This document shows, piece after piece, positions 1 to 15,805 of a DNA stretch of 15,805 bases. The notes beneath the pieces were generated by a model. The model did not search any database and had not been told where the DNA came from. It was given only the letters and a program-made list of their open reading frames with translations. The first letter of the stretch is position 1. The number at the start of each line of letters is the position of its first letter. This stretch comes from an uncultured Alphaproteobacteria bacterium (GTDB taxonomy: Bacteria > Pseudomonadota > Alphaproteobacteria > Rhizobiales > Xanthobacteraceae), in NCBI GenBank assembly GCA_963816565.1, contig CAWFLM010000012.1, positions 1-15,805 of the forward strand, read 5' to 3'. The translations under genes and the position numbers were made by a program.

Positions 1-67
1 TCTTTTTGCGGGACGGCCTTATTTGCTTCGCGACCGTCTTGGCGCCCGCGCTCTTAGTTGCTGCCAT
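1..67 (-). CDS. Start (first about 22 codons) of an unidentified gene running off the window edge. The N-terminus reads MAATKSAGAKTVAKQIRPSRKK.
   Basis: The reverse complement of 1-67 reads ATG GCA GCA ACT AAG .... It is preceded by GGTGGAGATAGAT, a GGAGA-like RBS about 7 nt upstream. It is too short to appear in the ORF track. It does not look like the acidic RpoD N-terminus that often follows dnaG. Confidence 0.2.
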   Translation of the reverse strand, partial: MAATKSAGAKTVAKQIRPSRKK

Positions 68-367
68 ATCTATCTCCACCAAGCCTGTCCGTACCAAGCG
101 GGCTTCGCGCCTTTGCCCCAAACTACGCCCCTACCCTATGGTCATGCGCCACACCGGGTAGACGGGTCCTTCCCTTGTGCCGAAGGCCAACGCACAAAGC
201 CCTCGAGCGGACGGCCAAAAGGGGCAGCGCCGACCGTAGCAGATGCCGCCCGAATCGAGAGGCTTTCAGTCTTCGCGGAACTCCGTTAAGCTCCGACTAA
301 CCCTGTTCGCCGCGCCCCGCGGTCTCCTTATTATTCGGCCACCCTGGCGTCCAGAGCCAGCGCCAAA

Positions 368-2378
368 CTAGAGCGCGCGCGTCGGACGGCCGGATTCGTT
401 GCCGAAACCCTCAATTAATGCCTCGGTACCCTCGAGGGTCGACAGCCGGGACTTCACGTCGCGCAGACGAGAATAATTAGCCTCGCTGTTGTCCTGTCCG
501 AGCGCCAATTCTGCGTCCTTAAGTTCCCTAGTTAGGGAATGCCACTGCCGATGCAAGGCAAGAAGCTGCTTCCAGGTCTGCAAAACATCGCCGGAACCCG
601 CTTCAGGCCTCGCGACCCAGACCGAGGGCGTGGTGATCGACCGCTCAACCCGCGCGAGAAGGTCCGCGAAGCCCCGGCGCGTGAGTTCCACAAGGAGCCT
701 CGCACGTCCTGCTCGCGGGACTGACCCGATTCCGCGTCCGGAGGCCTGTCCCGGCCCTCACCGAAATGATGCGCAAGAACGTCGATCAGCGCGGCTTTGA
801 GCCGGTTCGCATCGCCGTGGCGGAACTCGGTTTCGGCGAGTTCCTCGAGGCGATCGTGCAGCAGCGAAGGATGATTGAGCGCCGCCTGCAGGATCAGCGC
901 CTCCCGCAGCGGAATGGCGGTGCGGTGGCCCCGGTGCAGCGGGCTCGCCGCGAGCTGCGGGCTCGCGGTCACGTATCCGCGGCCATAGGCCATGCGGGGC
1001 GAATAGGTCGGCGTCCCCGCGTTCGGCGATCGCGGTCCTGCGGTCGCCGCGCTCACCGCCGCGTCCGCGATCGTTCCAGCTGCCGCGGCGCGTATTGGCA
1101 CCTCGACCGGCGCAAACAGCGCCCGGAGCCTCGCGGCGAAGTCGGAGCGGTAATAGCGGCGTACGGTTTCGTCGGCGATGGTGTTCGTCACCTCGATCAG
1201 CCGCGCTTCGAGCGCGGCACGCCGCTCGGGGGTTGCGAAGGTGCCGGCTTCTGTCTCGCGCGTCCACAGCACGTCGGCGAGCGGCCGGGCGGCGCCCAGC
1301 ACATCCTCGATTGCCTCGCGTCCGCCGGAACGCACCAGATCGTCGGGATCCTGTCCGTCCGGCAGTGCTGCGAGCTTGAGGCTTTTGCCCGGCTTGATCA
1401 GCGGCAGCGCGACATCCAGCGCGCGATACGCCGCGCGTTTGCCGGCATCGTCGCCGTCGAAGCACAGCATCGGTTCGTCGGCCATCCGCCACATCAGCGC
1501 AAGCTGCTCGGCGGTGAGCGCGGTGCCAAGCGGCGCGACGGTGGCCTCGAAGCCCGCCGTCACCATGGCGATGACGTCGATATAGCCTTCGACCGCGATG
1601 ACGCGCCCGCCTTCATGCGCGGCCTTGCGCGCCGTTGCGATGTTGTAAAGCGTGGCGCCTTTGTGAAAGAGCGGCGTCTCGGGCGAATTCAGATATTTCG
1701 CCGACATTTCCTTGTCGAGCGCGCGGCCGCCGAACGCGATCACCCGTCCGCGCCAGTCGCTGATCGGAAACATCACGCGGTCGCGGAAGCGGTCATACGG
1801 CACCGGGATATCTTCGCCGGCGACCAGCAGCCCCGCCTCGACCATGTCCTCGACCGAAATCTTCGCGGCGCCGAGATGCTCCTTGAGCGCGTATTGCTCG
1901 CCCGACGCATAGCCGAGCCGAAACTGCAACTGCGTCGCCGAGGCGAAATGCCGCGGTCGGCGAGATAGCCGCGGCCGCGCGCGCCGGTGCGCGCCGCGAG
2001 ATTGGCCTCGAAAAATTTTGCCGCCAGATCGACGATGTCGTGCAGCGACTTGCGGCGCTCCTCGTAAGCCTGCGCTTCGCGCGTCATCACCGGCAGGGGC
2101 ACGCCGGCCTGCCCGGCCAGCCGCTCGACCGCCTCGGGGAAGCTCACCCCTTCGGTCGCCATCACAAAATCGAAAATGTTGCCGTTCTTGCCGGAGGAGA
2201 AGTCAAACCACATCGCCTTCTGGTCATTGACGAAGAACGACGGCGTTTTCTCCTTGTTGAAGGGCGACAGCCCTTTCCACTCGCGGCCGGCTTTGCGCAA
2301 TTTGATGCGCTGGCCGACGACTTCCGAAACCGGAAGCCGCGCCCGCAGTTCATCGAGGAATTGCGGAGAAAATCGCAT
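368..2378 (-). CDS. dnaG: DNA primase DnaG. It is split over at least 3 frames here.
   Basis: ORF 1773-2378 (-) carries the N-terminal zinc-binding domain (MRFSPQFLDELRARLPVSEVVG...WFDFSSGKNGNIFDFVMATEGVSF). ORF 532-1929 (-) carries the TOPRIM/catalytic core (VIAVEGYIDVIAMVTAGFEATVAPLGTALT, CFDGDDAGKRAAYRA). ORF 368-691 (-) carries the C-terminal helper region. Frame breaks fall near 1930 and 700. Confidence 0.9.
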
Positions 2379-2492
2379 GGTGATTCGGGGAGCTTATCGC
2401 GGAAGCGGGCCAAATAGGGGGCGGCCGGCCCGTCAGGCCGCCTCCGGGCCGATTGTCCCGGTTATCCACAGGCAAACAAGGTGCGGGCCGGA

Positions 2493-2955
2493 TTACCCGG
2501 CGAGCAGTTCTTCACCATCGCGCTGGCCTTGCCGAAATCCATCTGTCCGGAGAAGCGTTCCTTGAGCGCCGTCATGGTGCGGCCCATGTCCTTGAGCGTG
2601 GCCGCTTCGAGTTCCTTGATCAGCGACGAGATCGCCTCGCCCGCTTCGACGTCGGACAAGCTGCTTCGGCAGGTATCCGGAGATGATCGTCGATCTCCTC
2701 GCGCTCCTGGTCGGCGAGTTCGGCGCGTCCGGCTTTCTCGTAGATTTCGAGCGATTCCTGCCGCTGCTTGATCATCTTGCCCATAACGTCGAGGATTTCG
2801 GCATCGCTGAGCGTGAGCGCGTTCCGCGGCGCTGGTCTCGCGCTTCAATATCTCGGCATTGATCAGGCGCAGCGTCGAAATGCGGCGCTTGTCGCCTGCC
2901 TTCATTGCGGTCTTTGAGGGCGTTGTTGATATCGTCGCGCAACACGGCTATGGCC
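2493..2955 (-). CDS. GatB/YqeY domain-containing protein. It is frameshifted; the true stop appears to be TAA at 2493-2495.
   Basis: ORF 2462-2905 (-) reads MKAGDKRRISTLRLINAEI...GEAISSLIKELEAATLKDMGRTMTALKERFSGQMDFGKASAMVK, the typical YqeY C-terminus. Upstream in another frame it reads ...LRDDINNALKD. A 1-nt deletion near the 3' end turns ...MVKELLAG* into ...MVKNCSPG.... The position upstream of dnaG matches Nitrobacteraceae synteny. Confidence 0.75.
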
Positions 2956-3014
2956 TCATGCAATTCGCAAAATCGCCCGCACGGCGGGCGGCGCGCGCAC
3001 GATGATGTAGGCGC

Positions 3015-4239
3015 TTGCCGATGTTGACACAACCGCAGACCCGGCAGCTCTGGGACGATCCCGCGCCGACGGCGCTGCTCGTGCTGGCCGACGGCACCGT
3101 GCTCGAAGGCTTGGGCTTCGGCGCGACCGGCCATGCCGTCGGCGAAGTCTGCTTCAATACCGCGATGACCGGTTACGAGGAAATCCTCACCGATCCGTCC
3201 TATGCCGGCCAGATCATCACCTTCACCTTTCCGCATATCGGCAATGTCGGCACCAACGAGGAGGACATCGAGACCGTCAACCTCGCGGCGACGCCAGGCG
3301 CGCGCGGCGTCATTCTGCACTCGCCGATCACCGCGCCGTCGAATTATCGCGCCACGCGCCATCTCGATGCCTGGCTCAAGAGCCGCGGCGTCATCGGGCT
3401 TTCGCGGCATCGACACCCGCGCGCTCACCGCGCTTCATCCGCAAGAACGGCATGCCGAACGCGGTGATCGTCCACGAGCCGTCCGGCCGCTTCGATCTCG
3501 ATGAGCTCAAGCGCGAAGCGAGGCAATGGCCGGGACTGGTCGGCATGGACCTCGTGCCGATGGTGACTTCCGGCCAGCGCTTCACCTGGCAGGAGACGCC
3601 GTGGGTCTGGGGCGAAGGCTACGGCGAAATGCGCGACGCCGGAATTTCACGTCGTCGCCATCGATTACGGCATCAAGCGCAACATTCTGCGCCAGCTCGC
3701 CGGCAGTCGTTGCAGGGTGACGGTGGTGCCGGCGCAGACGTCGGCCGCCGACATTCTGGCGCTCAAGCCGGACGGCATTTTTCTCTCCAACGGCCCCGGC
3801 GATCCGGCCGCGACCGGCGAATATGCCGTGCCGGTGATCCGCACCCTGATCGAGCAAAAGCCGGTGTTCGGCATCTGCCTCGGCCACCAGATGCTGGGCC
3901 TCGCGCTCGGCGGCCAAGACCATGAAGATGCATCAGGGCCATCACGGCGCGAACCATCCGGTGAAGGATCTCGCGACCGGCAAGGTCGAGATCACCTCGA
4001 TGAATCACGGCTTCGCGGTCGACCGCGCCAGCCTGCCGCCGAACGTCGTGGAAACCCACGTCTCGCTGTTCGACGGCTCCAATTGCGGGCTCGCGCTCAA
4101 GGACCGGCCGGTATTCTCGGTTCAGTACCATCCCGAGGCGTCGCCCGGCCCGCGCGACAGCCACGGGCTGTTCAAGCGGTTTGTCGACCTGATGCGGGAG
4201 TTCAAACGGAGCTTGAGCGCGGGCAAAATCCGGGCCTGA
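3015..4239 (+). CDS. carA: Carbamoyl-phosphate synthase small (glutamine amidotransferase) subunit CarA. It needs about 3 frame shifts.
   Basis: ORF 3015-3467 reads [40 protein letters not shown]...[33 protein letters not shown], the CPSase small-chain N-domain. The pieces at 3452-3925 and 3717-4529 carry the GATase domain ([43 protein letters not shown]). ORF 3922-4239 reads [14 protein letters not shown]...MNHGFAV...[26 protein letters not shown]. Confidence 0.92.
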
Positions 4240-4304
4240 GGTCAGACAATTTCAACCCCATATCGGCTAAAATGACCGAGCCGCCTCGGCGAGACGAACA
4301 TACC

Positions 4305-4816
4305 ATGCCGACCCCCAGCCCGCGTTCCGTGCCGATCACCCATAAATTCGCCGACGACGGAACGATCCCGAACAATCCGGTGCTGCCGTTGGTGATGTAC
4401 CGCGGCGGGCATCGATCTCGCCGGCTCGCCCGACCCGGAGGAGATCGATCGAGAAGACCTTCGCCGCGAACGGCTGGGGCGGGATGTGGCGCAACGGCGT
4501 TTATCCTTACGTCCACTATCATTCGATGATTCACGAGGCGATGGGCGATCGCGCGCGGTCGCGCCAGGGTCCGCTTCGGCGGCGACAAGGGCGGGAGATC
4601 GATATCGCGCCCGGCGATGTCGTCGTGCTGCCGGCCGGCACCGGCCACCAGGGCCTGAGCCAAACGCCGGACCTTGTCGTGATCGGCAGCCTATCCGCCG
4701 AGTCGGCAAATACAATCTCTGCCGCGGCAGCAAGGCGGAACACGCAGGCGCTCGACTCGATTCCCGCGTGCCGCTGCCGCAGACCGATCCGGTGTTCGGC
4801 GCCGAAGGCCCGCTGA
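4305..4816 (+). CDS. Small cupin-domain protein, frameshifted.
   Basis: It reads [35 protein letters not shown]. After a shift it continues ...[24 protein letters not shown]...[33 protein letters not shown]. The G-x5-HxH-like motif and PAGxxH motif are typical of cupins. The 3' end is uncertain. Confidence 0.55.
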
Positions 4817-4823
4817 TCGCACT

Positions 4824-5529
4824 GTGGCGGGCATGATCACCGACTGGCTGGCGTTCTGGGACGGTCCGCATTTCATTTACGTCAGCGCGCGCCACAAGGA
4901 TGTCCACTATCGCCTGATCGCGAAAGAGATCGCGGCGCTGGTCCCCGGCCCCGACGCACGCGTGCTCGATTACGGCTCGGGCGAGGCGCTGCACGCCGAC
5001 CTCGTCGCTGACGCCGCCGGCGAACTCTTGCTGTGCGAAGCGGCCGCCAGCGTGCGCGCGGGCCTCGAAAAGCGTTTTGCCGGACAACCCGAAAATCCGC
5101 GTCGATCGCGCCGCACGAAATCGCGCGGCTGCCCGAGCACTCGCTCGACCTGATCGTCATGCACTCGGTCGCTGCAGTATGTGACGCCGGCCGGCGCCGG
5201 CGTGCTGTTCGCGCTGTTTCACCGCATTTTGAAATCCGACGGCCTGCTCGTGGTGAGCGACGTCATCCAGCCGCAGACCGCTGCCGCGACCGATGCGTTT
5301 CGCTGCTGCGGTTCGGCATGGCCAACAGATTTTTCTTTGCCGCGCTGTGGGGCCTCGCGCGCACGCTGTTGTCGGATTACTGGCGGCTGCGCTCGCAACT
5401 CGGGCTGACGCGCTATGCCCAGGCGCCATGATCGAGAAACTCAGCGCCGCCGGCTTCACCGCGGAACGCGCGCCGGCCAATATCGGGCACAATCAGGAAC
5501 GCCGGACCTACTACGCGCGTCCGCGCTAG
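4824..5529 (+). CDS. Class I SAM-dependent methyltransferase, frameshifted.
   Basis: It reads MAGMITDWLAFWDGPHFIYVSARHKDVHYRLIAKEIAALVPGPDARVLDYGSGEALHADLV, which is motif I VLDYGSGEA. It continues in other frames with ...LDLIVMHSVAQYVTPAGAGVLFALFHRILKSDGLLVVSDVIQP...MIEKLSAAGFTAERAPANIGHNQERRTYYARPR*. Confidence 0.65.
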
Positions 5530-5535
5530 ACCCGT

Positions 5536-6776
5536 TCAGGCGACCGCTGCGAGCGCGCGCATGCGCGCCTGATCCACCAAGGCTCCGTTGCTTGATGACA
5601 TGCGCCGGCGGTTCGTGAAAGCGCAGCGCCTCGATGACGTCGGGTTGGTTCAGCACGACAAGGTCGGCCACCGCTCCCTCGGTCAACCGGAAGCCCGGAA
5701 GGTTGATGGCGGTGGCCGCGTCGACCGTGATCATGTCGTAGAGCTTTTCGACATCCTGCCGCGTCATCATCCATAACAGGTGCGAGGCGAGGAACGCGAC
5801 TTCCAGCATGTTGTTGCGGCCGAACGCGTAGTAGGCGTCGGAAATATCGTCCTGGCCGAGGCAGACGACGACGCCCTCGGCCAGCAATTCCTTGACGCGC
5901 GCGTGCAACGGACCGGTGTGCGGATCGGTCACGACAGCGATCCGCGCCGCACGCAAAAGCCGCGCGAGCCGCTGCACATAGGGCATCGGATAAAGGCTCA
6001 TCGCCCGGCAATGGTGCGCGAGCGCGCGGCCGTGCCAGCCGCGCTCGATGGTCTCGACCGCCATCATTTCCAGCGTGCGCAAACCGGGATCGCCGGCATC
6101 GTCAAGAAGCATGGAAACGTCCTTGTCGAATTTTTGCGCAAGATCGAAACAGGCTTTCACGTGCTTCGCGGCATCGGCCGTCGGTAAACTCGATCCACGG
6201 AATGCCGCCGACCACATCGGCGCCGAGCGCCATCGCCTCGCTGCATCAGTTCGAGCGCGCCCGGCTCGCGGACGATGCCGTCCTGGGCGAAGGCGACGAT
6301 TTGCAGATCGACAATGCCGCGGAATTCGTCGCGAACGCGAATGAGCGCCTTCACGCCTTCAAGACGCGCCTTGCCGTCAACGTCGGCAAAAGCACGAATG
6401 TGCAAGTTGCCGTGAAGCGCCGCCAGCGCCACGGCGCGGCGCGCATTTTCGACGATCCAGGATTTCCGCGTATTTTTCTTTGATCTTGCTGGCGAGTTCG
6501 ATGCCGGCCATCGCTTTGCCCATCGCCTCGCCCTGATAGGACTTGAGCGCTTCCTCCTCCATCATCGGCAAGCGTCCACACCTTGCACAGATGCAGGTGC
6601 GGATTGACGAAGGATTCGGTCACCAGATTGCCGCCGGCGTCGATCTCCGTCGTTCCGCGGCGATCGAGATTTTCACCGATAGCAACGATGCGGCCGTTCT
6701 TGATGCCGATCTCGGCAAGCCGATCGCGGCCGCGGAGCCGGGCACGGCGGATGGCGATGTCGAACGGCTGATCCAT
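5536..6776 (-). CDS. Amidohydrolase-superfamily protein, cytosine-deaminase/AtzC-like. It is split over 3 ORFs.
   Basis: The N-terminal ORF 6351-6776 (-) reads MDQPFDIAIRRARL...GGNLVTESFVNPHLHLCKVWTL, an HxH metal-binding motif. The middle ORF is 6157-6432 (-). The C-terminal ORF 5456-6217 (-) reads ...IAVVTDPHTGPLHARVKELLAEGVVVCLGQDDISDAYYAFGRNNMLEVAFLASHL.... A likely true C-terminus ...VIKQ-GALVDQARMRALAAVA* in the alternate frame ends near 5536. Confidence 0.8.
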
Positions 6777-7042
6777 TGCTCGATTTTAGTTCAAGGCGCT
6801 GCGAAAGCTTCTTGCTGCTAAAAGCCGACATATACCCCGGTCGTGGTGTATTTCCACCAAAGCGAAACTCTATTCTCGATCTCTTAGTTGCTCCGACCGC
6901 ACTATTTCCCCTGAGACAGGGAGCTTGCATGGTATTGCGCATTCTCACGGTCTGTCGCATCGTGATTTTAAGGATTTAGCGACCAGCTTTCCGCGTGCTC
7001 GGCGGCGATTCAACGATGGGTCCGATCAATTGACCGTATCCG

Positions 7043-8106
7043 ATGCAAAAAATGGGCTGCCCCCGTCCCACAAGCGGTGGTTCAACCCCTGACCCGCGCC
7101 GCGATCTTTCTGATCGTGACCATAAATCCTGGCGTCGAAAATCGTGCGGCCGTCCGGTCATTCTGCGGAGACCTGCCGGCGCTCCTTCGCGCCGTGGGTT
7201 TCCGCGACATCGAAGGCGAGCTTGTCCTGCGTCCTCGGATTTGGATCGGATGCGTGGGACAGGCTTTTCGGCACGCCGCGGCCGGCCGAGCTGCATCCGT
7301 TCCGCGAAATCAAGGCCGGTCCCCGCCATGCCGTCGCCACGCCCGGCGACATGCTGTTTCACATCCGCGCCAAGCGCATGGATCTCTGCTTCGAGCTGGC
7401 CACCCAGATCATGGCGCGGCTCAAAGATGCGGTTTCGCCCGTCGACGAGGTACACGGCTTTAGATATTTCGATGACCGTGATCTGGTCGGATTTGTCGAC
7501 GGAACGGAAAATCCGACGGATCAAGCGGCACTCGACGCCGCACTCGTCGAGCCTGGAGGACGCCGCGTTTGCCGGCGGCAGCTACGTGATCGTGCAAAAA
7601 TACTTGCATGATCTGGCCGGCTGGAACGCGCTATCCACCGAAGCTCAGGAACGCATCATCGGCCGCACCAAGCTTTCAGACATCGAGCTTGATGACGCTG
7701 TCAAACCAACATGCGCTCACAATGCGCTCACCACGATCGTGGAGGACGGCAAGGAAGTAAAGATCGTTCGCGACAACATGCCGTTCGGCTCGGTGGCGAA
7801 GGCGGAGTTCGGGACCTATTTCATCGGTTACGCTCGTTCGCCCCGAACGATCGAGCAAATGCTGGTGAATATGTTCGTCGGCCGGCCTCCTGGCAATTAT
7901 GACCGGTTGCTGGATTTCAGCCGCGCTGTAAGCGGCAGTCTTGTTCTTCGCGCCGTCGGCGACGTTCCTGGAGAATGTCGCGGACGACGAGCCCGTGGCG
8001 CCTTTGCCGCCGCGCTGCGGTTGCGGCGCCGGCGCAACCGGCGGCATCTGCGCGCGATGGATCGCTCGGTATTGGTTCCCTCAAAGGAGATCCTCCTCAT
8101 GAATAA
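7043..8106 (+). CDS. Dyp-type peroxidase, encapsulin cargo, with a C-terminal targeting peptide. It needs about 4 frame shifts and the 5' start is uncertain (7043-7077).
   Basis: Frame 0 reads ...AVVQPLTRAAIFLIVTINPG...LRAVGFRDIEGELV. Frame 1 (ORF 7144-7611) reads ...LHPFREIKAGPRHAVATPGDMLFHIRAKRMDLCFELATQIMARL...VDEVHGFRYFDDRDLVGFVDGTENPTD, the DyP GXXDG motif. Frame 2 reads ...GGSYVIVQKYLHDLAGWNALSTEAQERIIGRTK...GTYFIGYARSPRTIEQMLVNMFVGRPPGNYDRLLDFSRAVSGSL. Frame 0 then reads SLFFAPSATFLENVADDEPVAP. Frame 1 ends ...PAQPAASARDGSLGIGSLKGDPPHE* with TAA at 8104-8106. SLGIGSLKG is the canonical encapsulin cargo-loading peptide. Confidence 0.88.
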
Positions 8107-8938
8107 TCTTTACCGCGAGCTTGCTCCGATCTCAGACGCGGCGTGGTCTCAGATCGAGGAGGAGACCTCCCGCACGTTCAAGCGCTACCTCGCCGGACGG
8201 CGCGTCGTTGACATGCAGGGTCCGGGCGGTGTCGCGCTTCCGGCCATCGGCACCGGCCATTTGCGCGATATTAAAGCGTCCGGCGACGGCATCATCTCGC
8301 GCCAGCGCGAGGTGAAAGCGCTGGTCGAACTGCGCGTACCCTTCGAGCTTAGTCGCCAGCAGATCGACGATGTCGAGCGCGGCGCTAACGACTCAGACTG
8401 GCAGCCCGCGAAGGACGCCGCGCAGAGGATAGCCTTTGCGGAAGATCGCGCCATATTCGAAGGCTATGTCGCCGGCGGAATCGGCGGCATCCGGGAAGGG
8501 ACCAGCAATCCAGTGACGGCGCTTCCAGCCGACGTGCGCGCCTACCCGGACGCCATCGCCAAAGCGGTAAGCCAGTTGCGTCTGGTCGGCGTCAACGGTC
8601 CATATTCCGTGCTGCTCAGCGCCGATGCCTACACCAGCCTCAGCGAGACCAGCGATCACGGTTATCCGGTACTTGACCACGTCAAACGTCTGGTGGATGG
8701 CGAAATTATATGGGCGCCGGCAATCGCGGGCGCATTCGTGCTGACAACCCGCGGCGGCGATTTCGGCCTGTACATCGGCCAGGACGTATCGATCGGCTAT
8801 CTGAGCCACACCGAAGCAGTCGTCCGCCTTTACCTACAGGAGACATTCACTTTTCTCTTGCTCACGACGGAAGCTGCTGTCGCGTTAGCTCCCCCTGCGG
8901 ACGCGCGGTCGAATCCCGCTCAGCGAAAGCAGCGCTGA
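8099..8938 (+). CDS. Family 1 encapsulin nanocompartment shell protein (HK97 fold). It is the only long gene here that reads through without frame breaks.
   Basis: It reads MNNLYRELAPISDAAWSQIEEETSRTFKRYLAGRRVVDMQGP...DDVERGANDSDWQPAKDAAQRIAFAEDRAIFEGY...VGVNGPYSVLLSADAYTSLSETSDHGYPVLDHVKRL...EIIWAPAIAGAFVLTTRGGDFGLYIGQDVSIGYLSHTEAVVRLYLQETFTF. This matches characterised DyP-associated encapsulins end to end. Its ATG at 8099 overlaps the DyP stop (cATGAATAA). The last about 14 aa (PADARSNPAQRKQR) may be a read-through of a frame error. Confidence 0.92.
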   Translation: MNNLYRELAPISDAAWSQIEEETSRTFKRYLAGRRVVDMQGPGGVALPAIGTGHLRDIKASGDGIISRQREVKALVELRVPFELSRQQIDDVERGANDSDWQPAKDAAQRIAFAEDRAIFEGYVAGGIGGIREGTSNPVTALPADVRAYPDAIAKAVSQLRLVGVNGPYSVLLSADAYTSLSETSDHGYPVLDHVKRLVDGEIIWAPAIAGAFVLTTRGGDFGLYIGQDVSIGYLSHTEAVVRLYLQETFTFLLLTTEAAVALAPPADARSNPAQRKQR

Positions 8939-9061
8939 TCCATCGAGATCAGCGCATTCGCTTCCGAACGAAAGCTGCAGTCGTCGTGATGGAGAAGAGC
9001 CAACAAAGAGTAACTTGTCGACAAAAGATTTATAAGCTCCGCCCCAAAAAGACGTCCAAAA

Positions 9062-9112
9062 AGACTTGCCCAAAAAGAAGAGGTCGCCTGCGATATTTTT
9101 CGCAAGCGACCT
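9062..9112 (-). terminator. Rho-independent terminator for paralog A on the minus strand.
   Basis: Plus-strand AGGTCGCCTGCG (9081-9092), loop ATATTTTT, then CGCAAGCGACCT (9101-9112). This is a 12-bp stem with 1 mismatch. On the minus strand it is followed by CTTCTTTTTGGGCAAGTCTTTTTGGACGTCTTTTTGGGG, which gives three T5 runs. It lies 37 nt after the gene A stop. Confidence 0.6.
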
Positions 9113-9148
9113 TCATTGTCATCCGACGCAGGCGACATGTCGGCGTCT

Positions 9149-9941
9149 TTAGTTCTTCGCCTGCCCGTTGGCCTTCAGAAAGTCCTGATAGGTGAGGCCC
9201 GCGTAGTTCGGCGTGGTCGGCGCTTGCGTTGCGTCGGCAGCCGGCGCCACAGGCGCTGCGTCGATGGATTTGCTGCCGGCCGGCGACACCGGGGTCGTGT
9301 CGGACAGGCCCCACCGACCGGCGCGCTGGCCGCTTCTTTGGTGAAGACTCGGCAAACACCACTAGGCCATCCTGCGTGTAAGCCTTGGTCAGGCAGGTGC
9401 ACGGACCGGGCGAAGCCACAGACACCGGGGCCGCATCCGCGAGTTCACCAGCAACCGTATCGATAGATACAGCGACCATCACGGAGAATCCAGTGCCCGT
9501 GACCATTGAATGCCCAGCCGGGTTGACCCGGGAAACCTGGACGGCCGGGATAGCCTGGACGGCCCGGATTGAGGATCGGAAGGCCAACCGTGCGACCGCC
9601 GCCACCGTTGTAGCCGCCTGTGCCAGTGCCGACGCGGCCACCGTTACCGGTACCAGTACCGACCTGGCCACCATTGTTGCCGGCGGTGCCGAGACCGCTG
9701 CCGGCGCGCTGCTGTTGCCGAAGTTGTTAGCGGAAACGGTGCTGTACTGTACCGGAAACTGAGCTGGCGCCGAAGGCGCGTACCGCTGGCGGTCTTGTCC
9801 GCGAGACACTGTGGTTGACGCCGCTGCCGCGACTGGCATTACCGCCGCCGCTGGAACCACGGGCATAAGATTCGCTAGATGAAACGAGGCAACGGTGATC
9901 GTGGCCGCGGCTGCAAGGCTGAGGATGAGGGTGCGTGACAT
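9149..9941 (-). CDS. Paralog A of a secreted Gly/His-rich, Cys-containing protein of unknown function. It carries a signal peptide and several 1-nt indels.
   Basis: The ATG at 9939-9941 sits behind GGAGAAC-N6. The N-terminus MSRTLILSLAAAATITVASF is a Sec signal peptide. Alternate frames give a Gly-rich region (GSGLGTAGNNGGQVGTGTGNGGRVGTGTGGYNGGGG), a collagen-like PGRPGYPGRPGFPGQPG stretch, then GWAFNGHGHWILRDGR, then ...ELADAAPVSVASPGPCTCLTKAYTQDGLVVFAES-TKEAASAPVGGA..., and the C-terminus ...DAAPVAPAADATQAPTTPNYAGLTYQDFLKANGQAKN* (ORF 9149-9355). The 303-aa ORF 9030-9941 is an artefactual read-through. Confidence 0.6.
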
Positions 9942-9974
9942 CGTTGTTCTCCAGGGTCCGAGTAAGGGAAAGGG

Positions 9975-10014
9975 TTGCGATACCCGTTAGTCGGAGTTGT
10001 CGGAGAAAGGTTCA
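9975..10014 (-). promoter_or_regulatory. Putative ECF-sigma-dependent promoter of paralog A.
   Basis: On the minus strand it reads TGAACC (plus 10009-10014), then TTTCTCCGACAACTC (15 nt), then CGACTAA (plus 9987-9993), then the conserved AACGGGTATCGCAA. The -10 element ends 45 nt before the ATG. The same architecture is found upstream of paralog B and of the ECF sigma gene. Confidence 0.4.
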
Positions 10015-10134
10015 GGGCCGGTGAAGATCGCGATCGGCCTCGAGCGCGCCGCCGCAAGCGGGCCGGCAGGCGCCCTTAACTGGCGGGCCCTCATCAATGC
10101 CGGATAGGATCGATTGGCGGATTGCAATGAAAGT

Positions 10135-11013
10135 CTATTGGACCAGTTCGAGCACAAAATCCATCGGCTCGGCAATCGAATAACCCGAGTTAAGAAGCAT
10201 CGTAAAATCCGCCGCTTTTTCGGTCAGTGGAATAAACTCAGTCATGATGCCGACAAGATGAAAGTATATTTCAGAACCCTCCGGATCGATTTCAAATACC
10301 GGCCCTCCGCTGTTTCCCCTGTACACCGGGCCATCAATAATCAAAGAACGTCTTTGCGGATCTTTTCCGGCGATAAAAGCCTTTCGCAGCAGCGGCCGCA
10401 GCGGATCGAATTGTTGGTGTCAGGAAGACCCAGCGACGCCGGGTAGCCATACAAAATAGCATCGTTTCCGACCAGAACTTGATCGAACTTTCGGACCGCA
10501 ATCATTCCCGCACTAACCAGGCCGCTGTCCGCAAATTCGACTTTTGCGACCCCCGGCGAAAAGAATGTCATCAGCGAGTGATCCTGGGCTTCCTTCAGAA
10601 TCCCGAGCTTGATGGCTGCAACATCTCTCGTTTTGTGCGGCTTCACATCGCCCCGATCCAGCAGCATTTTGAAATCGACCCTCAGCAAAATCCGCTGCGG
10701 CGTCGGCTGATCCATCGAGTATGACACCAGTTCAAGAACCAGATCCGGCACTTCGGCTTTGTGGGTTTTTTCGTTGGGCAGGCCTGACGCTATGACGTGT
10801 TTTGCGGTCACCAAATATTCTGCATTGGCGGTACCAAAATAAAAACCCGAGCCAAAGCCCAACGTCGTTCCACTACTGTTTTTCATGATAACCAAGACGG
10901 GATAGGCCAAATTGTCGTCGGGAATCATCCGCCTCGCCTGCGCCAAATTGATCGACACGAACGGCCAAAGCGACGACCAGGAACAAGCGGCTGATTTGGA
11001 GCAGGTGATTCAT
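10135..11013 (-). CDS. Secreted trypsin-like (S1 / chymotrypsin-fold) serine peptidase. It sits in a low-GC island and has 2 frame shifts.
   Basis: A signal peptide MNHLLQISRLFLVVALAVRVD starts at the ATG at 11011-11013. ORF 10341-10958 (-) carries the His motif LVTAKHVIASG and the Asp motif TRDVAAIKLGIL. ORF 10135-10344 (-) carries the Ser motif YRGNSGGPVF (GDSGGP-like) and ends ...SIAEPMDFVLELVQ*. GC is about 47-50% over 10.1-11.1 kb, against about 65% in the flanks. Confidence 0.75.
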
Positions 11014-11154
11014 CGCAACAGCCTTTCAAGATCGGACCTCGCTTTTGGCAGACGCGCCTTTAGCCGCCTCAACTGTAGAACAGCGCGCCCATTTCGTCGC
11101 CCGTCGTTCCGAGCTGGAATGCCGTCGCCAAAAAACTATTTAAGACACTCGCAC

Positions 11155-11201
11155 TAACAAAAAAGAGACAGGTCGCCTGCGATACGTTTCGCAGGCGACC
11201 T
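11155..11201 (-). terminator. Rho-independent terminator for paralog B on the minus strand.
   Basis: Plus-strand AGGTCGCCTGCG (11170-11181), loop ATACGTTT, then CGCAGGCGACCT (11190-11201). This is a perfect 12-bp stem. On the minus strand it is followed by GTCTCTTTTTTGTT. It lies 39 nt after the gene B stop. Its stem sequence is nearly identical to the terminator at 9081-9112. Confidence 0.65.
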
Positions 11202-11239
11202 TCATTCTCATTTCCGGCGTGGGCGTTTTGCCGGCGTCT

Positions 11240-11886
11240 TCAGTTCTTTTCCGCTGCCTGCGCTGCCGCCTGGCCGTTGGCCTTCAGGAAGTCCTGATAG
11301 GTGAGGCCCGCGTAGTTCGGCGTGGTCGGCGCTTGCGTTGCGTCGGCAGCCGGCGCCACGGGCGCTGTGTCGTTGGACTTGCTGTTGGCCGGCGGTACCG
11401 GGGTAGCGTCGGAAGAGGCGCCGCCGATCGCCGCGCTGGCTGCTTCTTTGGTGCACATATCGGCGAACACCACCAGACCGGCCTGCGTGTAAGTCTTGGT
11501 CAGGCAGGTGCACGGACCGGGAGCAGCCGCAGATACGGGCGCCGCATCCGCGAGGTCACCATCCACCGGGTCGATGACGATCCAGCGGCCACCACGGAAA
11601 ATCCAGTGTCCGTGACCATGGCCGGCCCAACGGCCGGGAGCCGGAGCCGATCCGGGTGACCGGGACGGTCGCCATTGCGGGCTACACGTCCGCCACCATC
11701 GCGGCCGCCGCGGCCGGCGCCGGTACGTCCGCCGACATTGACGTGACCGCCGACGCTGGCATGACCGCCGAAACTGGCATGACCGCCGCCGCCGCCGAAA
11801 CCGTGGGCGTAAGAAGCGCTGGAAGCAAGCGAGGCGACGGTGATCGTGGCCGCGGCTGCGAGGGTGAGGATCAGGGTGCGTGACAT
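11240..11886 (-). CDS. Paralog B of the secreted Gly/His-rich, Cys-containing protein, about 215 aa. It has a signal peptide and at least 1 frame shift.
   Basis: The ATG at 11884-11886 sits behind GGAGAAC. It reads MSRTLILTLAAAATITVASLASSASYA, a signal peptide with an AxA cleavage site. This is followed by HGFGGGGGHASFGGHASVGGHVNVGGRTGAGRGGRDGGGRVA, which contains GGHxx[FV] hexapeptide repeats. After a frame shift it reads ...APGRWAGHGHGHWIFRGGRWIVIDPVDGDLADAAPVSAAAPGPCTCLTKTYTQAGLVVFADMCTKEAASAAIGGASSDATPVPPANSKSNDTAPVAPAADATQAPTTPNYAGLTYQDFLKANGQAAAQAAEKN* (ORF 11240-11566). The 263-aa ORF 11500-12291 is an artefact that runs past the true start. Confidence 0.65.
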
Positions 11887-11918
11887 GGTCGTTCTCCAGG
11901 GGTTGCGAGGGTTGGGCG

Positions 11919-11959
11919 TTTCGATACCCGTTGGTCGGTGGCTCCCGGAGAAAGGTTCA
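11919..11959 (-). promoter_or_regulatory. Putative ECF-sigma-dependent promoter of paralog B.
   Basis: On the minus strand it reads TGAACC (plus 11954-11959), then TTTCTCCGGGAGCCAC (16 nt), then CGACCAA (plus 11931-11937), then AACGGGTATCGAAA. The -10 element ends 44 nt before the ATG. The 5'-UTR ...CCCTGGAGAAC(A/G)AC(G/C)ATG is conserved with paralog A. Confidence 0.4.
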
Positions 11960-12177
11960 AAGGGGACAGTGAAATTCTCGATAGGCGCGGGGCGGGACCG
12001 GCCGGGGTCGAGCGGCGAGCCGCCTACTATTAAGTTTGCTTGAGTCGGCGTTGGCGGAGCTGACGCTGAAAGCCCATAAAACAAGGCTTTTGGCCTTCGG
12101 CTTGCCCTACCGCACATGAATAAGGAAACTGCCGGTACTCGAGTAGCCGAACCGCGCAAATTTTCTTCGATTTCAAT

Positions 12178-12206
12178 TGAACCTGGGCGCCGCTCCCAAC
12201 GACCAA
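12178..12206 (+). promoter_or_regulatory. Putative autoregulatory ECF-type promoter of the sigma factor gene.
   Basis: TGAACC (12178-12183), then TGGGCGCCGCTCCCAA (16 nt), then CGACCAA (12200-12206). It lies 23 nt upstream of the ATG at 12230. It has the same -35/-10 sequences and spacing as the promoters of paralogs A and B. Confidence 0.35.
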
Positions 12207-12229
12207 TTTTACGAGCCGATAGCCTGCCG

Positions 12230-12790
12230 ATGCAGACGACTTCGGACGAGGTTCTGATCGGAAGGATCGCCAATGGCGACCGGCTCGCCATGCAGGTGCT
12301 GTTCGCGCGTCACCATGTCCGGGTTTACCGATTCGTGCTGCGGCTGGTGCGCAACGAGGCAACGGCGGAGGATTTGATCAGTGAGGTGTTCCTCGACGTC
12401 TGGCGGCAGGCCGGCAGGTTCGAGGGACGGTCAGCGGTGTCGACCTGGATGTTGAGCATCGCCCGCTTCAAGGCGCTGTCGGCGCTGCGCAAGCGTACCG
12501 AGGAGGAGCTGGATGACGAGACGGCCAGCGCGATCGAGGATCATGCCGACGATCCGGAGGTCTCGCTGGCGAAGAAGGATAAAGCCGCCGTGTTGCGGCA
12601 ATGCCTGGGCAAGCTCTCGGCCGAGCACCGGGAGGTCGTCGACCTCGTATACTACCATGAGAAATCGGTGGAGGAGGTCGCGGGCATTGTCGGCATTCCG
12701 GAGGCGACCGTGAAGACGCGCATGTTCTATGCGCGGAGGAAACTGTCGGAGCTCCTCAAGGAGCAAGGAATGGATCGAGGTTGGCCATGA
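12230..12790 (+). CDS. ECF-family RNA polymerase sigma-70 factor.
   Basis: It reads MQTTSDEVLIGRIANGDRLAMQVLFARHHVRVYRFVLRLVRNEATAEDLISEVFLDVWRQAGRFEGRSAVSTWMLSIARFKALSALRKR, which is region 2. It continues ...LSAEHREVVDLVYYHEKSVEEVAGIVGIPEATVKTRMFYARRKLSELL, which is region 4. The six-frame ORF starts at 12116, but the N-terminal alignment and the promoter favour 12230. Its TGA overlaps the anti-sigma ATG (CCATGACC). Confidence 0.9.
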   Translation: MQTTSDEVLIGRIANGDRLAMQVLFARHHVRVYRFVLRLVRNEATAEDLISEVFLDVWRQAGRFEGRSAVSTWMLSIARFKALSALRKRTEEELDDETASAIEDHADDPEVSLAKKDKAAVLRQCLGKLSAEHREVVDLVYYHEKSVEEVAGIVGIPEATVKTRMFYARRKLSELLKEQGMDRGWP

Positions 12791-13467
12791 CCGCGGCGCA
12801 AGGAAAGCGAGCCGAACGAAATCGAACTCCTGCTGCCTTGGCACGCGGCGGGAACGCTCAGCCAACGCGACAAGCAGCGCGTGGAAGCCGCGCTCGCCAA
12901 CGACCCGGAGCTTGCGCGCCGCTACCAGCTGGTGCGCGAGGAGCTTGGCGAGACCATCCACCTCAACGAGACGCTGGGGGCGCCATCGGCGCGCGCCATG
13001 GAAGCGCTATTCGCCAAGATCGACGCCGAGCCGGCGCGAGCCCCGGCGGTGTCGATCAATGTCGGCGTGCGCATTCGCGAATTTTTGCCGGCCTTTCGCC
13101 GCGCACGCTTGCCTGGTCGGCAAGCGCGGCGATGCTGGCCATTCTGCTGCAGGCCGGATTGATTGCCGGCATTCTGTTCAAAGAACAAGGCGCCCAGACT
13201 GCGGCCAACTACCAAACGGCCTCGCTGTCGCGCCCGGCCAGCGGCGAAGGTTCCTATGCGCTGATCCGTTTCCAGCCGCAGGCCAATGCCGCCGAAATCA
13301 GCAAATTCCTGGAAACCAACAAACTCACTATCGCCGACGGCCCGTCGCCGGGCGGGCTATATCGGGTGCGCGTCGCGCCGAGCAAGGTTTCCGGTACGGA
13401 CCTCACCGGCATCGTGAAGAAGCTGCAGGACAATAGCGTTGTGGGCTTTATCGCCCCCACGGAGTGA
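12787..13467 (+). CDS. Cognate anti-sigma factor, a single-pass membrane protein. It needs 2 frame shifts.
   Basis: Stitched over 3 frames it reads MTAAQGKRAEPNEIELLLPWHAAGTLSQRDKQRVEAALANDPELARRYQLVREELGETIHLNETLGAPSARAMEALFAKIDAEP.... It then reads ...LSPRTLAWSASAAMLAILLQAGLIAGILF, which is a transmembrane helix. It continues ...YALIRFQPQANAAEISKFLETNKLTIADGPSPGGLYRVRVAPS...VGFIAPTE*. The N-terminal ELLLPW..G.LS motif is typical of ECF anti-sigma factors. It is translationally coupled to the sigma gene. Confidence 0.75.
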   Translation: MTAAQGKRAERNRTPAALARGGNAQPTRQAARGSRARQRPGACAPLPAGARGAWRDHPPQRDAGGAIGARHGSAIRQDRRRAGASPGGVDQCRRAHSRIFAGLSPRTLAWSASAAMLAILLQAGLIAGILFKEQGAQTAANYQTASLSRPASGEGSYALIRFQPQANAAEISKFLETNKLTIADGPSPGGLYRVRVAPSKVSGTDLTGIVKKLQDNSVVGFIAPTE

Positions 13468-13556
13468 TCGTCCTGCCACAGTTTGGCTTGAGAGTTCTGC
13501 CATTGAAGGCGTTGCCGACACTAGCGCGGTGCGCACCGCCGTATCGGGAGGTTGCC

Positions 13557-15705
13557 ATGCGAAGCAAGCGATGACGTCCCGATCGATCCTGGGGGTTATG
13601 CTCTTCGGTTTGTTTTGGCGGTAGCTGCATTGACAAATCTGGCCCCGCCGCAGCGCGCGGCTTCGGCGGCGGCGTTTTGGCGGGGGGGCGCGCGGATGTT
13701 CGCGGCATGCGCGGCGGCGGATCGCACCACGAATGACGCGGAGTAGCGGCAGGACAAGTGGCGGTACATCCACCAAACGCGACGTCGGCAATTCGAGCGG
13801 ACCAGGACAACAAACACGTCGGGGACGGCCAGCCATCACGCGAACGTCGGCCGCCAATTCCGGAACAAAAACGACAAATACTGAACCAACTACAATTCTA
13901 GCTTGAGTTCATCCGGCAAGCACCGTCAAAAACGACGCATCAGGGGAACGGCAACATTTCGACCTCGAAAACATTGACGAATCAACACCGGTTCGAAAAC
14001 AACCAACATCAGGGGAGCAGCAACACTTCCACTGCGAACACGTCGACGACTGCCGGCTCGAGAACAACGACACGCAAGGAAGCGGCAACAATTCCACCGT
14101 GAACAGGTCGGCGAGCAATACCGGCTCAAGAACCACGACCACGACCGGCAACACGTCGACATCGAACACGTCGAACGCCAATGCCGGCTCGACGACAACA
14201 AACACACAGGGGCCGGCCAACACCCACCGGAAACACTCAGCCGCCAACAACGGCTCGAGGACGGGAAGCACGCCGGGGACCGGCGGCAATTCCACATCGA
14301 ATACGCCGGGCGCCACTACCGGTTCGGACACTGGTCGGGCCGGGGACGGTCGCTAATGCCGGCTCGAATACATCTGACACGCCGCGCGGTGGCGGCCGCG
14401 TTCCCGGCTGCAGTGCCGAACATTCCGCCGGGGCCTGTTGGTCTTGGCGGTGGCGGTGGCGGCGCAGGGGGTGGCGGCGGAGGTGCCGGTGGCGGCGGCG
14501 GAGGTGGCGCGGGTGGCGGAGCCAATGTGGCCAGCAGCGGCGTCCCACCGCGAAACGAGCGGCGCTACGTACCTGACGAAGTCATCGCTGAGTTTTCGTC
14601 GACCGCGACGCCGCAATCGATCGATCAGCTCGCACGCCGGTACAATTTGACCCGGCTTGAATCGCAAAGCTTCCCATTGATCGGCACCATCATTTACCGC
14701 TGGCACATCAACGGCCGCCGCTCAGTCCGGATACAATCGGTGCGATCGAAGACCAGCGCGTCGTCGCCAGAGCACAGCCCAATTACCTTTTCACGCTGCA
14801 AGCAGACGCCACAACCCCGGCGACAAAAACCCGCGGCGACGATTCGGCCCAATACGCCCTCGGCAAGCTGCACATCGAACGCGCGCATCAAGTCGCGACC
14901 GGGAAAAACATTCCGATTGCCTTGATCGACTCCGAGATCGACGTGAAACATCCGGACCTGAATGGAGCAATCACAAAAAGCTTCGATCCGCTCGGTGGAG
15001 ATGCCAAGCCGCACCCGCACGGCACTGCCATGGCAGGCGCCATCGCCGCGCACGGGAAACTTTCCGGCATCGCTTTAGGCCCGCATCTGTTGGCGGCGCG
15101 CGCCTTCGACAACACCGCGGGCGAGACCAAGGGTACCTCTCTTGCGATCTACAAAAGCCTGCAGTGGGCCGCGGACAATGGCGCTCGCGTCATCAACATG
15201 AGCTTCGCCGGCCCCGCCGACCCCGACATGCACCGGATGCTGGCGGCCGCATACGAGAAAGGCATCGTGCTGGTAGCGGCAGCCGGAAACGCCGGACCCA
15301 ACTCCGCACCGCTTTATCCGGCGGCCGATCCCGACGTCATCGCGGTGACTGCCACCGACAGCAATGACGGTCTGTTCAAGATGGCCAACCGCGGCTCATA
15401 CATTGCCGTTGCTGCTCCGGGCGTGGAGATTCTGGCACTGGCGCCCGGTAAACCGTATCAGATCACCACGGGCACCTCGGTCGCCGCGGCGCATGTCAGC
15501 GGGATCGCGGCAATGCTGCTCAAAGAAAAACCTTCGCTCACGCCCAACAAGTCCGCTCGATCATCATGTCTACTGCCAAGCCGCTCGGATCGGCCGGCCA
15601 GCGATCGGACTTTGGCGCCGGACTGGTCGATGCCTACCAGGCGGTGACGGCGATAGGAACGGCAAGCCGGCGGTTAAACAGGACGCCGAACAGGCAAAGG
15701 AATAA
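13557..15705 (+). CDS. Secreted subtilisin-like (S8) serine peptidase. It has a long N-terminal low-complexity Ser/Thr/Asn/Gly repeat region, a poly-Gly tract and an I9-like propeptide. The N-terminal part has many frame shifts and the 5' extent is uncertain.
   Basis: The catalytic domain (ORF 14922-15647 plus neighbouring frames) reads IALIDSEIDVKHPDL (Asp), HPHGTAMAGAIAAHG (His), AAAGNAGPNS (Asn) and TTGTSVAAAHVSGIAAMLL (Ser). The propeptide reads NERRYVPDEVIAEFSSTATPQSIDQLARRYNL.... Upstream are GLGGGGGGAGGGGGGAGGGGGGGAGGG and NTGSRTTTTTGNTSTSNTSNANAGSTTTNTQGP... repeats. A candidate signal peptide MRSKR-MTSRSILGVMLFGLF-LAVAALTNLAPPQRAASA sits at 13557, 6 nt after GGGAGG. Every frame has stops between 13746 and 14100, so the link between the signal peptide and the protease rests on assuming indels. 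The gene ends ...AYQAVTAIGNGKPAVKQDAEQAKE* at 15705. Confidence 0.8.
13920..14400 (+). repeat. About 7 degenerate tandem copies of a unit of about 60-68 nt that encodes an STNG-rich peptide repeat.
   Basis: The anchor [AT][AG]CCGG[CT]TC[GA]A recurs at about 13988, 14051, 14119, 14181, 14249, 14317 and 14356. Spacings are 63, 68, 62, 68, 68 and 39 nt. Translated units look like NTGSRTTTTTGNTSTSNTSNA, NAGSTTTNTQGPANT... and NNGSRTGSTPGTGGNSTSNTPGA. Confidence 0.6.
14443..14525 (+). repeat. GGN codon tract encoding poly-Gly (G6-7 A)x4.
   Basis: The DNA reads ggcggtggcggtggcggcgcagggggtggcggcggaggtgccggtggcggcggcggaggtggcgcgggtggcgga. The antisense poly-Pro ORF 14316-14525 and the WRWRW/AVAVAA ORFs in other frames are artefacts of this tract. 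Confidence 0.7.
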
Positions 15706-15805
15706 TCGCAAAGCCGATCGGCGTGCTAGCCTTGCCGTGACACCGACGGTATCGGCCATGACCGCGCCGTGTGCGCCGAGCGGTTTTTCGTCGCCAATTG
15801 TTGAA

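Follow-up and report, generated by a model that had tools for sequence, protein, structure and literature searches.

The question raised by the stretch of DNA studied here (contig CAWFLM010000012.1 of an uncultured alphaproteobacterium, positions 1 to 15,805; the whole 15,805 nucleotides (nt) are called the window below) is whether its 631-amino-acid open reading frame (ORF), which has a peroxidase-like part followed by an encapsulin-like part, represents a fusion protein, a decayed gene next to a preserved one, or an ordinary operon obscured by faults in the sequence. The reading that we hold to be very probable is that of a standard two-gene family-1 encapsulin operon, with a gene for a DyP-type peroxidase preceding that for the shell protein, in which the breaks in the DyP gene are errors and which is intact in the organism itself. 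A preliminary description of the window had already taken the ORF for a frame-broken DyP gene followed by an encapsulin gene, and both the Pfam profiles and a three-frame translation agree with this: residues 172-300 of the ORF match Dyp_perox_C and residues 353-603 match Linocin_M18, and only about 130 of the first 352 residues lie in the DyP frame. The ORF is an artefact of frame 2 and not a genuine fusion protein.

The family-1 shell gene has an intact frame, and its 279-residue product begins with MNNLYRELAPISDAAW at ATG 8099 in the three-frame translation. The profile search that had been proposed as a check gave a match to Linocin_M18 with E=1e-95 and 320 bits (cut-off 24.3) over profile positions 1-253 of 253, and the NCBIfam equivalog model encap_f1 (family 1 encapsulin nanocompartment shell protein) scored 346 bits against a cut-off of 100 over positions 1-261 of 261. 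The shell matches 36 PDB sequences, the top ones with E=1e-105 to 1e-116 over residues 1-265; its best relatives there are 9i8d (E=2e-116) and the shells of Mycobacterium smegmatis (7boj), M. tuberculosis (Cfp29; 7phm/7p1t), Brevibacterium linens (6i9g) and Klebsiella pneumoniae (8u50), all of the latter with E below 1e-105. The nearest database proteins are 95-96% identical, and the experimentally characterised T=1 shells 57-70% identical. By analogy with these, the protein is predicted to self-assemble around its cargo as a T=1 particle of 60 subunits, about 24 nm across. Membership in family 1 is borne out by the model matches, the kinship to solved shells, the adjacent cargo gene with its targeting peptide and the residues of the peptide-binding pocket, and the earlier placement of the locus among the known systems that pair a DyP cargo with a family-1 shell agrees with both the profile and the PDB matches.

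With the shell protein as query, a scan of the genome collection yielded 80 loci (numbered with the prefix L), which come mostly from soil metagenome-assembled genomes (MAGs) of the Alphaproteobacteria/Xanthobacteraceae and the Acidobacteriota. Residues 265-279 of the window shell (window 8891-8935) form a basic C-terminal tail, ...PPADARSNPAQRKQR, the last 11 residues of which are matched by nothing in the K. pneumoniae shell to which it was aligned; many of the shells of known structure that come closest are no longer than about 265 amino acids, and the length of the tail is common to the closest soil relatives of the window shell. The tail (8903-8935) resembles those of L004 and L002, and the remainder of the gene resembles L006 and L001, while dS (synonymous divergence) against L001 is 0.43 in the DyP gene and 0.17 in the shell gene. 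These contrasts suggest that the operon may be a mosaic, produced by recombination within it.

The DyP gene does not have an uninterrupted frame in the sequence as given, as it carries five single-base insertions or deletions (indels), where the preliminary description had counted at least four. They were located in a multiple alignment that included five relatives whose DyP ORFs are unbroken, and the same five events were recovered by our own frameshift-aware protein-to-DNA aligner; the DyP frame passes through the window as 1, 0, 1, 2, 0, 1 (Table 1). Neither approach found an indel in the 840-nt shell gene, and the spacer upstream of the DyP gene has one more insertion, at 7000. With the four insertions removed and the deletion padded, the gene yields a protein of 357 amino acids that has no internal stop and is 94% identical to the DyP of L006, its nearest relative. 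Its start is uncertain: TTG 7030 is the sole in-frame candidate. ATG 7043, which opens the 631-residue ORF, was rejected as the DyP start, since the DyP N-terminus is read in another frame. A promoter scan upstream of the gene returned no convincing promoter.

The corrected protein, stitched by hand across the breaks, contains both DyP domains (Dyp_perox_N, 113 bits; Dyp_perox_C, 191 bits) and scores 285 bits against TIGR01413 (cut-off 100.5). Its PDB matches include the encapsulin-associated DyP of K. pneumoniae (8u4z, E=8e-135) and that of M. smegmatis (7bok, E=4e-127), and the comparison with Rhodococcus jostii DypB that had been recommended earlier gave E=7e-119 to 3qnr, with residues 13-352 aligned to 12-350. 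The GFVDG motif (Asp157), His230, Arg247 and Asn249 are conserved with respect to the K. pneumoniae enzyme KpDyP, in which His225 and Arg242 align with His230 and Arg247. Such residues are, as in DypB, the haem ligand and catalytic residues of the family, namely the proximal His, the distal Arg and the Asp of GXXDG. The same roles are described in PMC10960027. On the analogy of its relatives, candidate functions of the enzyme would be the detoxification of peroxide or the peroxide-driven oxidation of substrates, with a possible link to oxidative stress.

At the junction of the two genes, the predicted features reappear once the frame is corrected. The DyP C-terminus, read in frame 1, is ...RDGSLGIGSLKGDPPHE, followed by the stop TAA at 8104-8106, and the corrected protein thus ends in ...DGSLGIGSLKGDPPHE, directly upstream of the shell gene and overlapping it. 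This end contains the cargo-loading peptide GSLGIGSLK, the codons of which also contain the Shine-Dalgarno site of the shell gene, and the overlap of the TAA with the shell ATG stands exactly as had been described. Across the 80 related loci the targeting peptide is nearly invariant and the embedded AAGGAG is kept in nearly all; 62/80 have the 8-nt overlap and 18/80 a 4-nt ATGA overlap. On these sequences, the stop/start overlap with an embedded Shine-Dalgarno site is the normal arrangement of the family, and it implies that translation of the two genes may be coupled.

Five of the related loci, all from long-read MAGs (L021, L034, L041, L050 and L057), have an ORF 5′ of the shell gene that is short or out of frame over the peptide region, which suggests that these assemblies carry similar frame errors.

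Table 1. Features of the operon and frame-breaking indels in the genes of the window (positions in the window; frameshift counts, nucleotides and rates refer to the gene in that row).
Feature	Position	Strand	Frameshifts	Nucleotides	Per kb	Remarks
DyP-type B-class, encapsulin-associated haem peroxidase gene	7030-8106	+	5	1077	4.64	357 aa after frame correction; stop TAA 8104-8106
Missing base	7058..7059	+				1-nt deletion against all five relatives; DyP frame 1 to 0
Extra C	7217	+				Position good to 1-2 nt; DyP frame 0 to 1
Extra C	7548	+				DyP frame 1 to 2
Extra G	7943	+				Breaks a TTTT run; DyP frame 2 to 0
Extra G	8014	+				DyP frame 0 to 1
Cargo-loading (targeting) peptide GSLGIGSLK, DyP C-terminus	8059-8085	+				Codons read in frame 1
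Shine-Dalgarno AAGGAG of the shell gene	8084-8089	+				Within the peptide's K-G-D codons; 9 nt before the ATG
Overlap ATGAATAA	8099-8106	+				8 nt; shell start ATG 8099-8101 with DyP stop TAA 8104-8106, context cATGAATAA
Family-1 encapsulin shell gene	8099-8938	+		840		279 aa, intact frame; last 279 codons of the 631-aa ORF
Spurious 631-aa ORF	7043-8938	+				ATG-to-stop; frame 2 open across the scrambled DyP gene, then into the encapsulin
dnaG			5	2036	2.46	
yqeY			5	455	10.99	
carA			4	1204	3.32	
Cupin gene			6	589	10.19	
Methyltransferase gene			5	693	7.22	
Amidohydrolase gene			5	1244	4.02	
Total of the seven genes with rates			35	7298	4.8	

The five breaks in the DyP gene are almost certainly sequencing or assembly errors and not signs of gene decay. 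As a reference for the frames of the other genes we used L081, a soil contig with intact ORFs that came up when metagenomes were scanned for a DnaG fragment and that is syntenic with the window over 1-6891 and much of 9059-13755. Against this background, frame-breaking indels span the window from 374 to 8014 and beyond, and fall also in non-coding spacers, such as that at 7000; the smaller downstream genes, to which the L081 proteins were aligned, have 1-3 frameshifts each. At the rate obtained with the DyP gene excluded, 5.2 indels would be expected in it, and 5 are seen. The DnaG primase, encoded at 374-2409, as sequenced ends after about 155 amino acids, past its zinc-binding domain, and no cell could live with such a truncation. 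Once corrected, the nine genes with a valid alignment (about 2,960 codons) are free of in-frame stops, and the ratios of non-synonymous to synonymous substitution rates (dN/dS) against the references are 0.09-0.31, at dS of about 0.15-0.75; yqeY was excluded from both tallies, its reference run being out of frame. For the DyP gene itself, dN/dS is 0.126-0.136 (0.126 against L006), and the intact relatives give 0.10-0.14 among themselves, which is the signature of purifying selection. Errors are thus favoured over decay because the indels of the DyP gene have the density of the background, because the essential dnaG is equally affected and because there are neither nonsense codons nor a relaxed dN/dS; that the indels come without matching substitution damage points to a technical origin. 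With indel noise of about 0.5% in the window, any finding of a pseudogene, a fusion ORF or a frame break in it is to be treated as an artefact until the DNA is resequenced.

Three observations weigh against a technical origin. First, the indel spectrum, with about 70% insertions that are mostly of G or C and rarely extend a homopolymer, is unlike both the classic homopolymer errors of nanopore reads and natural slippage. Second, an exact look-up of the 279- and 631-residue products returned no record, and the case for errors is indirect. Third, the probability of finding no indel in 840 nt at 4.8 per kb is 0.018 for the shell gene taken alone. As to the last point, a gap of 840 nt or more would turn up at least once among the 35 inter-indel gaps with a probability of about 0.46 (about 0.13 for two such gaps), and dnaG also holds a clean gap of 842 nt, at 1100-1942; for these reasons the cleanness of the shell gene is unremarkable. 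The statement in the preliminary description that the shell gene is the only one without a frame break is true among the testable genes, every other one of which has at least one, yet it is compatible with chance and carries no statistical distinction.

The surroundings of the two genes bear on a further explanation, which is compatible with a standard operon, namely that the cassette was placed in its present context by a chimeric join of the assembly. The closest loci by nucleotide identity over 6931-8903/8929 are L006 (94%) and L001 (90%), and the similarity is confined to 6931-8929. A join is suggested by the sharp ends of the similarity to encapsulin-bearing relatives, at 6931 and about 8947, by the flanks of the window, which are found in 0/80 of the encapsulin loci, and by the absence of the cassette from the syntenic L081, in which positions 3017-3781 on the minus strand code for an alpha/beta-hydrolase, between the amidohydrolase and the Gly/His-rich protein genes. 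The borders of the cassette fall in window 6891-6931 and 8947-9059, and the corresponding L081 region is 2875-4132; a search at these borders for flanking direct or inverted repeats, transfer RNA (tRNA) genes and Rfam elements gave no convincing repeat, no tRNA and no Rfam hit. The two-gene cassette also occurs in 65-79 plasmid records, among them those of conjugative IncF plasmids, where PGAP labels the genes 'Dyp-type peroxidase' and 'family 1 encapsulin nanocompartment shell protein'. The cassette moves between genomes, as the closest syntenic contig lacks it and many plasmids bear it, and frequent horizontal transfer of encapsulin operons has been proposed before (PMC8346489). The data are explained equally well if the cassette was truly inserted at a variable site, or took the place of other DNA there, the site being occupied in L081 by the hydrolase gene. 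The cassette and its surroundings have the same density of indels and a similar guanine-plus-cytosine (GC) content. We consider a chimeric join unlikely.

Two further observations concern the related loci. Among the Acidobacteriota MAGs (within L010-L079), many shell proteins are about 80% identical to that of the window, with the same peptide and overlap, which points to possible cross-phylum transfer in soil. Upstream of its DyP gene, L006 has a second encapsulin-like stretch on the opposite strand (6411-6733), with 74% nucleotide identity to window 8318-8641.

If the cargo gene were a genuine pseudogene and the shell had been kept by selection as an orphan or re-purposed encapsulin, one would expect what is seen at first sight, that is, five breaks in the DyP gene and none in the adjoining shell gene, with the low probability given above for a clean stretch of that length at the window rate. 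The number of DyP indels is nevertheless that of the background, and dnaG, which is essential, is broken in the same way; the corrected DyP gene is free of stops with a dN/dS like that of its intact relatives, both its catalytic residues and its targeting peptide are fully preserved, and the clean stretch in dnaG and the chance of such a gap among 35 take away the contrast with the shell gene. A decayed cargo gene is accordingly very improbable. The same evidence tells against a dead fragment under neutral decay, be it from a degenerating genome or from transfer into another genome, in which the frameshifts would be real. That all testable genes but one are frameshifted would suit it, but neutral decay would also add nonsense and non-synonymous changes, and neither the count of in-frame stops nor the dN/dS range leaves room for these; we give this explanation very little credence. 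Hardly any more plausible in our estimate is the notion that the frameshifts are real and that the lineage has single-base insertions throughout most of its genes, dnaG among them, with no gene but that of the encapsulin shell kept intact; if true, it would call for a mechanism of expression that restores the frame, or for an orphan shell under selection after the loss of its cargo. A true DyP-encapsulin fusion protein, for which only the uninterrupted run of the ORF from ATG to stop speaks, can practically be dismissed, as the greater part of its DyP half is out of frame and open owing to the high GC content, and in all relatives the peroxidase and the shell protein are separate products of two genes with overlapping stop and start codons.

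For the standard operon that we favour, the following course of events may be proposed. The fragment that holds the locus would be chromosomal and would come from an alphaproteobacterium of soil, probably from the Xanthobacteraceae/Bradyrhizobium neighbourhood. The B-type DyP would be made first, before the shell protein, and expression of the two genes would be coupled by the ATGAATAA overlap and the Shine-Dalgarno site inside the peptide codons. The GSLGIGSLK peptide is then predicted to dock on the inside of the shell, in a conserved pocket of the shell protein, and DyP oligomers, which by homology would be hexameric, could in this way be trapped while the shell self-assembles.

Elsewhere in the window, the subtilase (Peptidase_S8) gene spanning 14356-15647 on the plus strand is split into two ORFs, 14356-14925 and 14922-15647, which is probably another frame error. 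There are two paralogous genes for Gly/His-rich secreted proteins, at 9158-9702 and 11243-11956, both on the minus strand, and L081 has one. Between them, window 10000-11000 is a stretch of lower GC content (0.53), the largest ORF of which (10341-10958) has no Pfam match.

How does the operon compare with known systems? Those of M. smegmatis (7boj/7bok), M. tuberculosis (Cfp29, 7phm/7p1t) and B. linens (linocin M18, 6i9g) are classic T=1 DyP-loaded shells. Their shell proteins are among the best homologues of that of the window (E=1e-113 to 1e-115), and their hosts are actinobacteria, unlike the alphaproteobacterium of the window. Mycobacterial operons often have accessory genes (PMC8346489), none of which is evident at the window operon, and the M. 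tuberculosis encapsulin has been linked to oxidative stress (as cited in PMC8346489). R. jostii RHA1 likewise pairs DypB with an encapsulin, and its DypB (3qnr) matches the corrected DyP, including the C-terminal region; the lignin and Mn oxidation activity reported for DypB is not to be inferred for the window enzyme. Closer at hand, the operons of the soil MAGs L006 (CAWKLA010000017.1) and L001 (CAVZSB010000010.1) have an identical peptide, Shine-Dalgarno site and overlap, and differ from the window in their flanking genes and in having their DyP genes in one frame.

The K. pneumoniae system, KpDyP/KpEnc (8u4z, 8u50), shares both genes and their order with the window operon, and its plasmid annotation likewise shows a stop/start overlap of 8 nt. 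Its shell is 59% identical to that of the window, with residues 1-268 aligned without gaps, and its DyP 62% identical. In this system, SGSLNIGSLK binds a pocket on the inner P-domain of the shell through Leu, Ile and Leu and a salt bridge between Lys and Asp38, and Arg34, Asp229 and Ile230 of KpEnc are important for peptide binding; sixty subunits make up the shell, which measures about 24 nm and contains one or two hexamers of DyP (PMC10960027). The window peptide has Gly in place of Asn (GSLGIGSLK against GSLNIGSLK) and keeps the Leu, Ile, Leu and Lys, while its shell pocket has identical Arg34, Asp38 and Asp229 and a conservative Val for Ile at position 230. The window shell differs from KpEnc in its extra 11-residue basic C-terminal tail, and the window operon in its alphaproteobacterial host and chromosomal context, as against the IncF plasmid that carries the K. 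pneumoniae operon. DyP encapsulins are the most abundant class of encapsulins; a catalogue of 2021 lists 1,505 such systems (PMC8346489). The biological weight of one more is small, and the presence of the cassette at a spot where L081 has a different gene, like that of near-identical cassettes in Acidobacteriota MAGs and on conjugative plasmids, may be of minor interest for the spread of encapsulins; in every tested feature, the window system conforms to the known DyP-loaded encapsulins of family 1.

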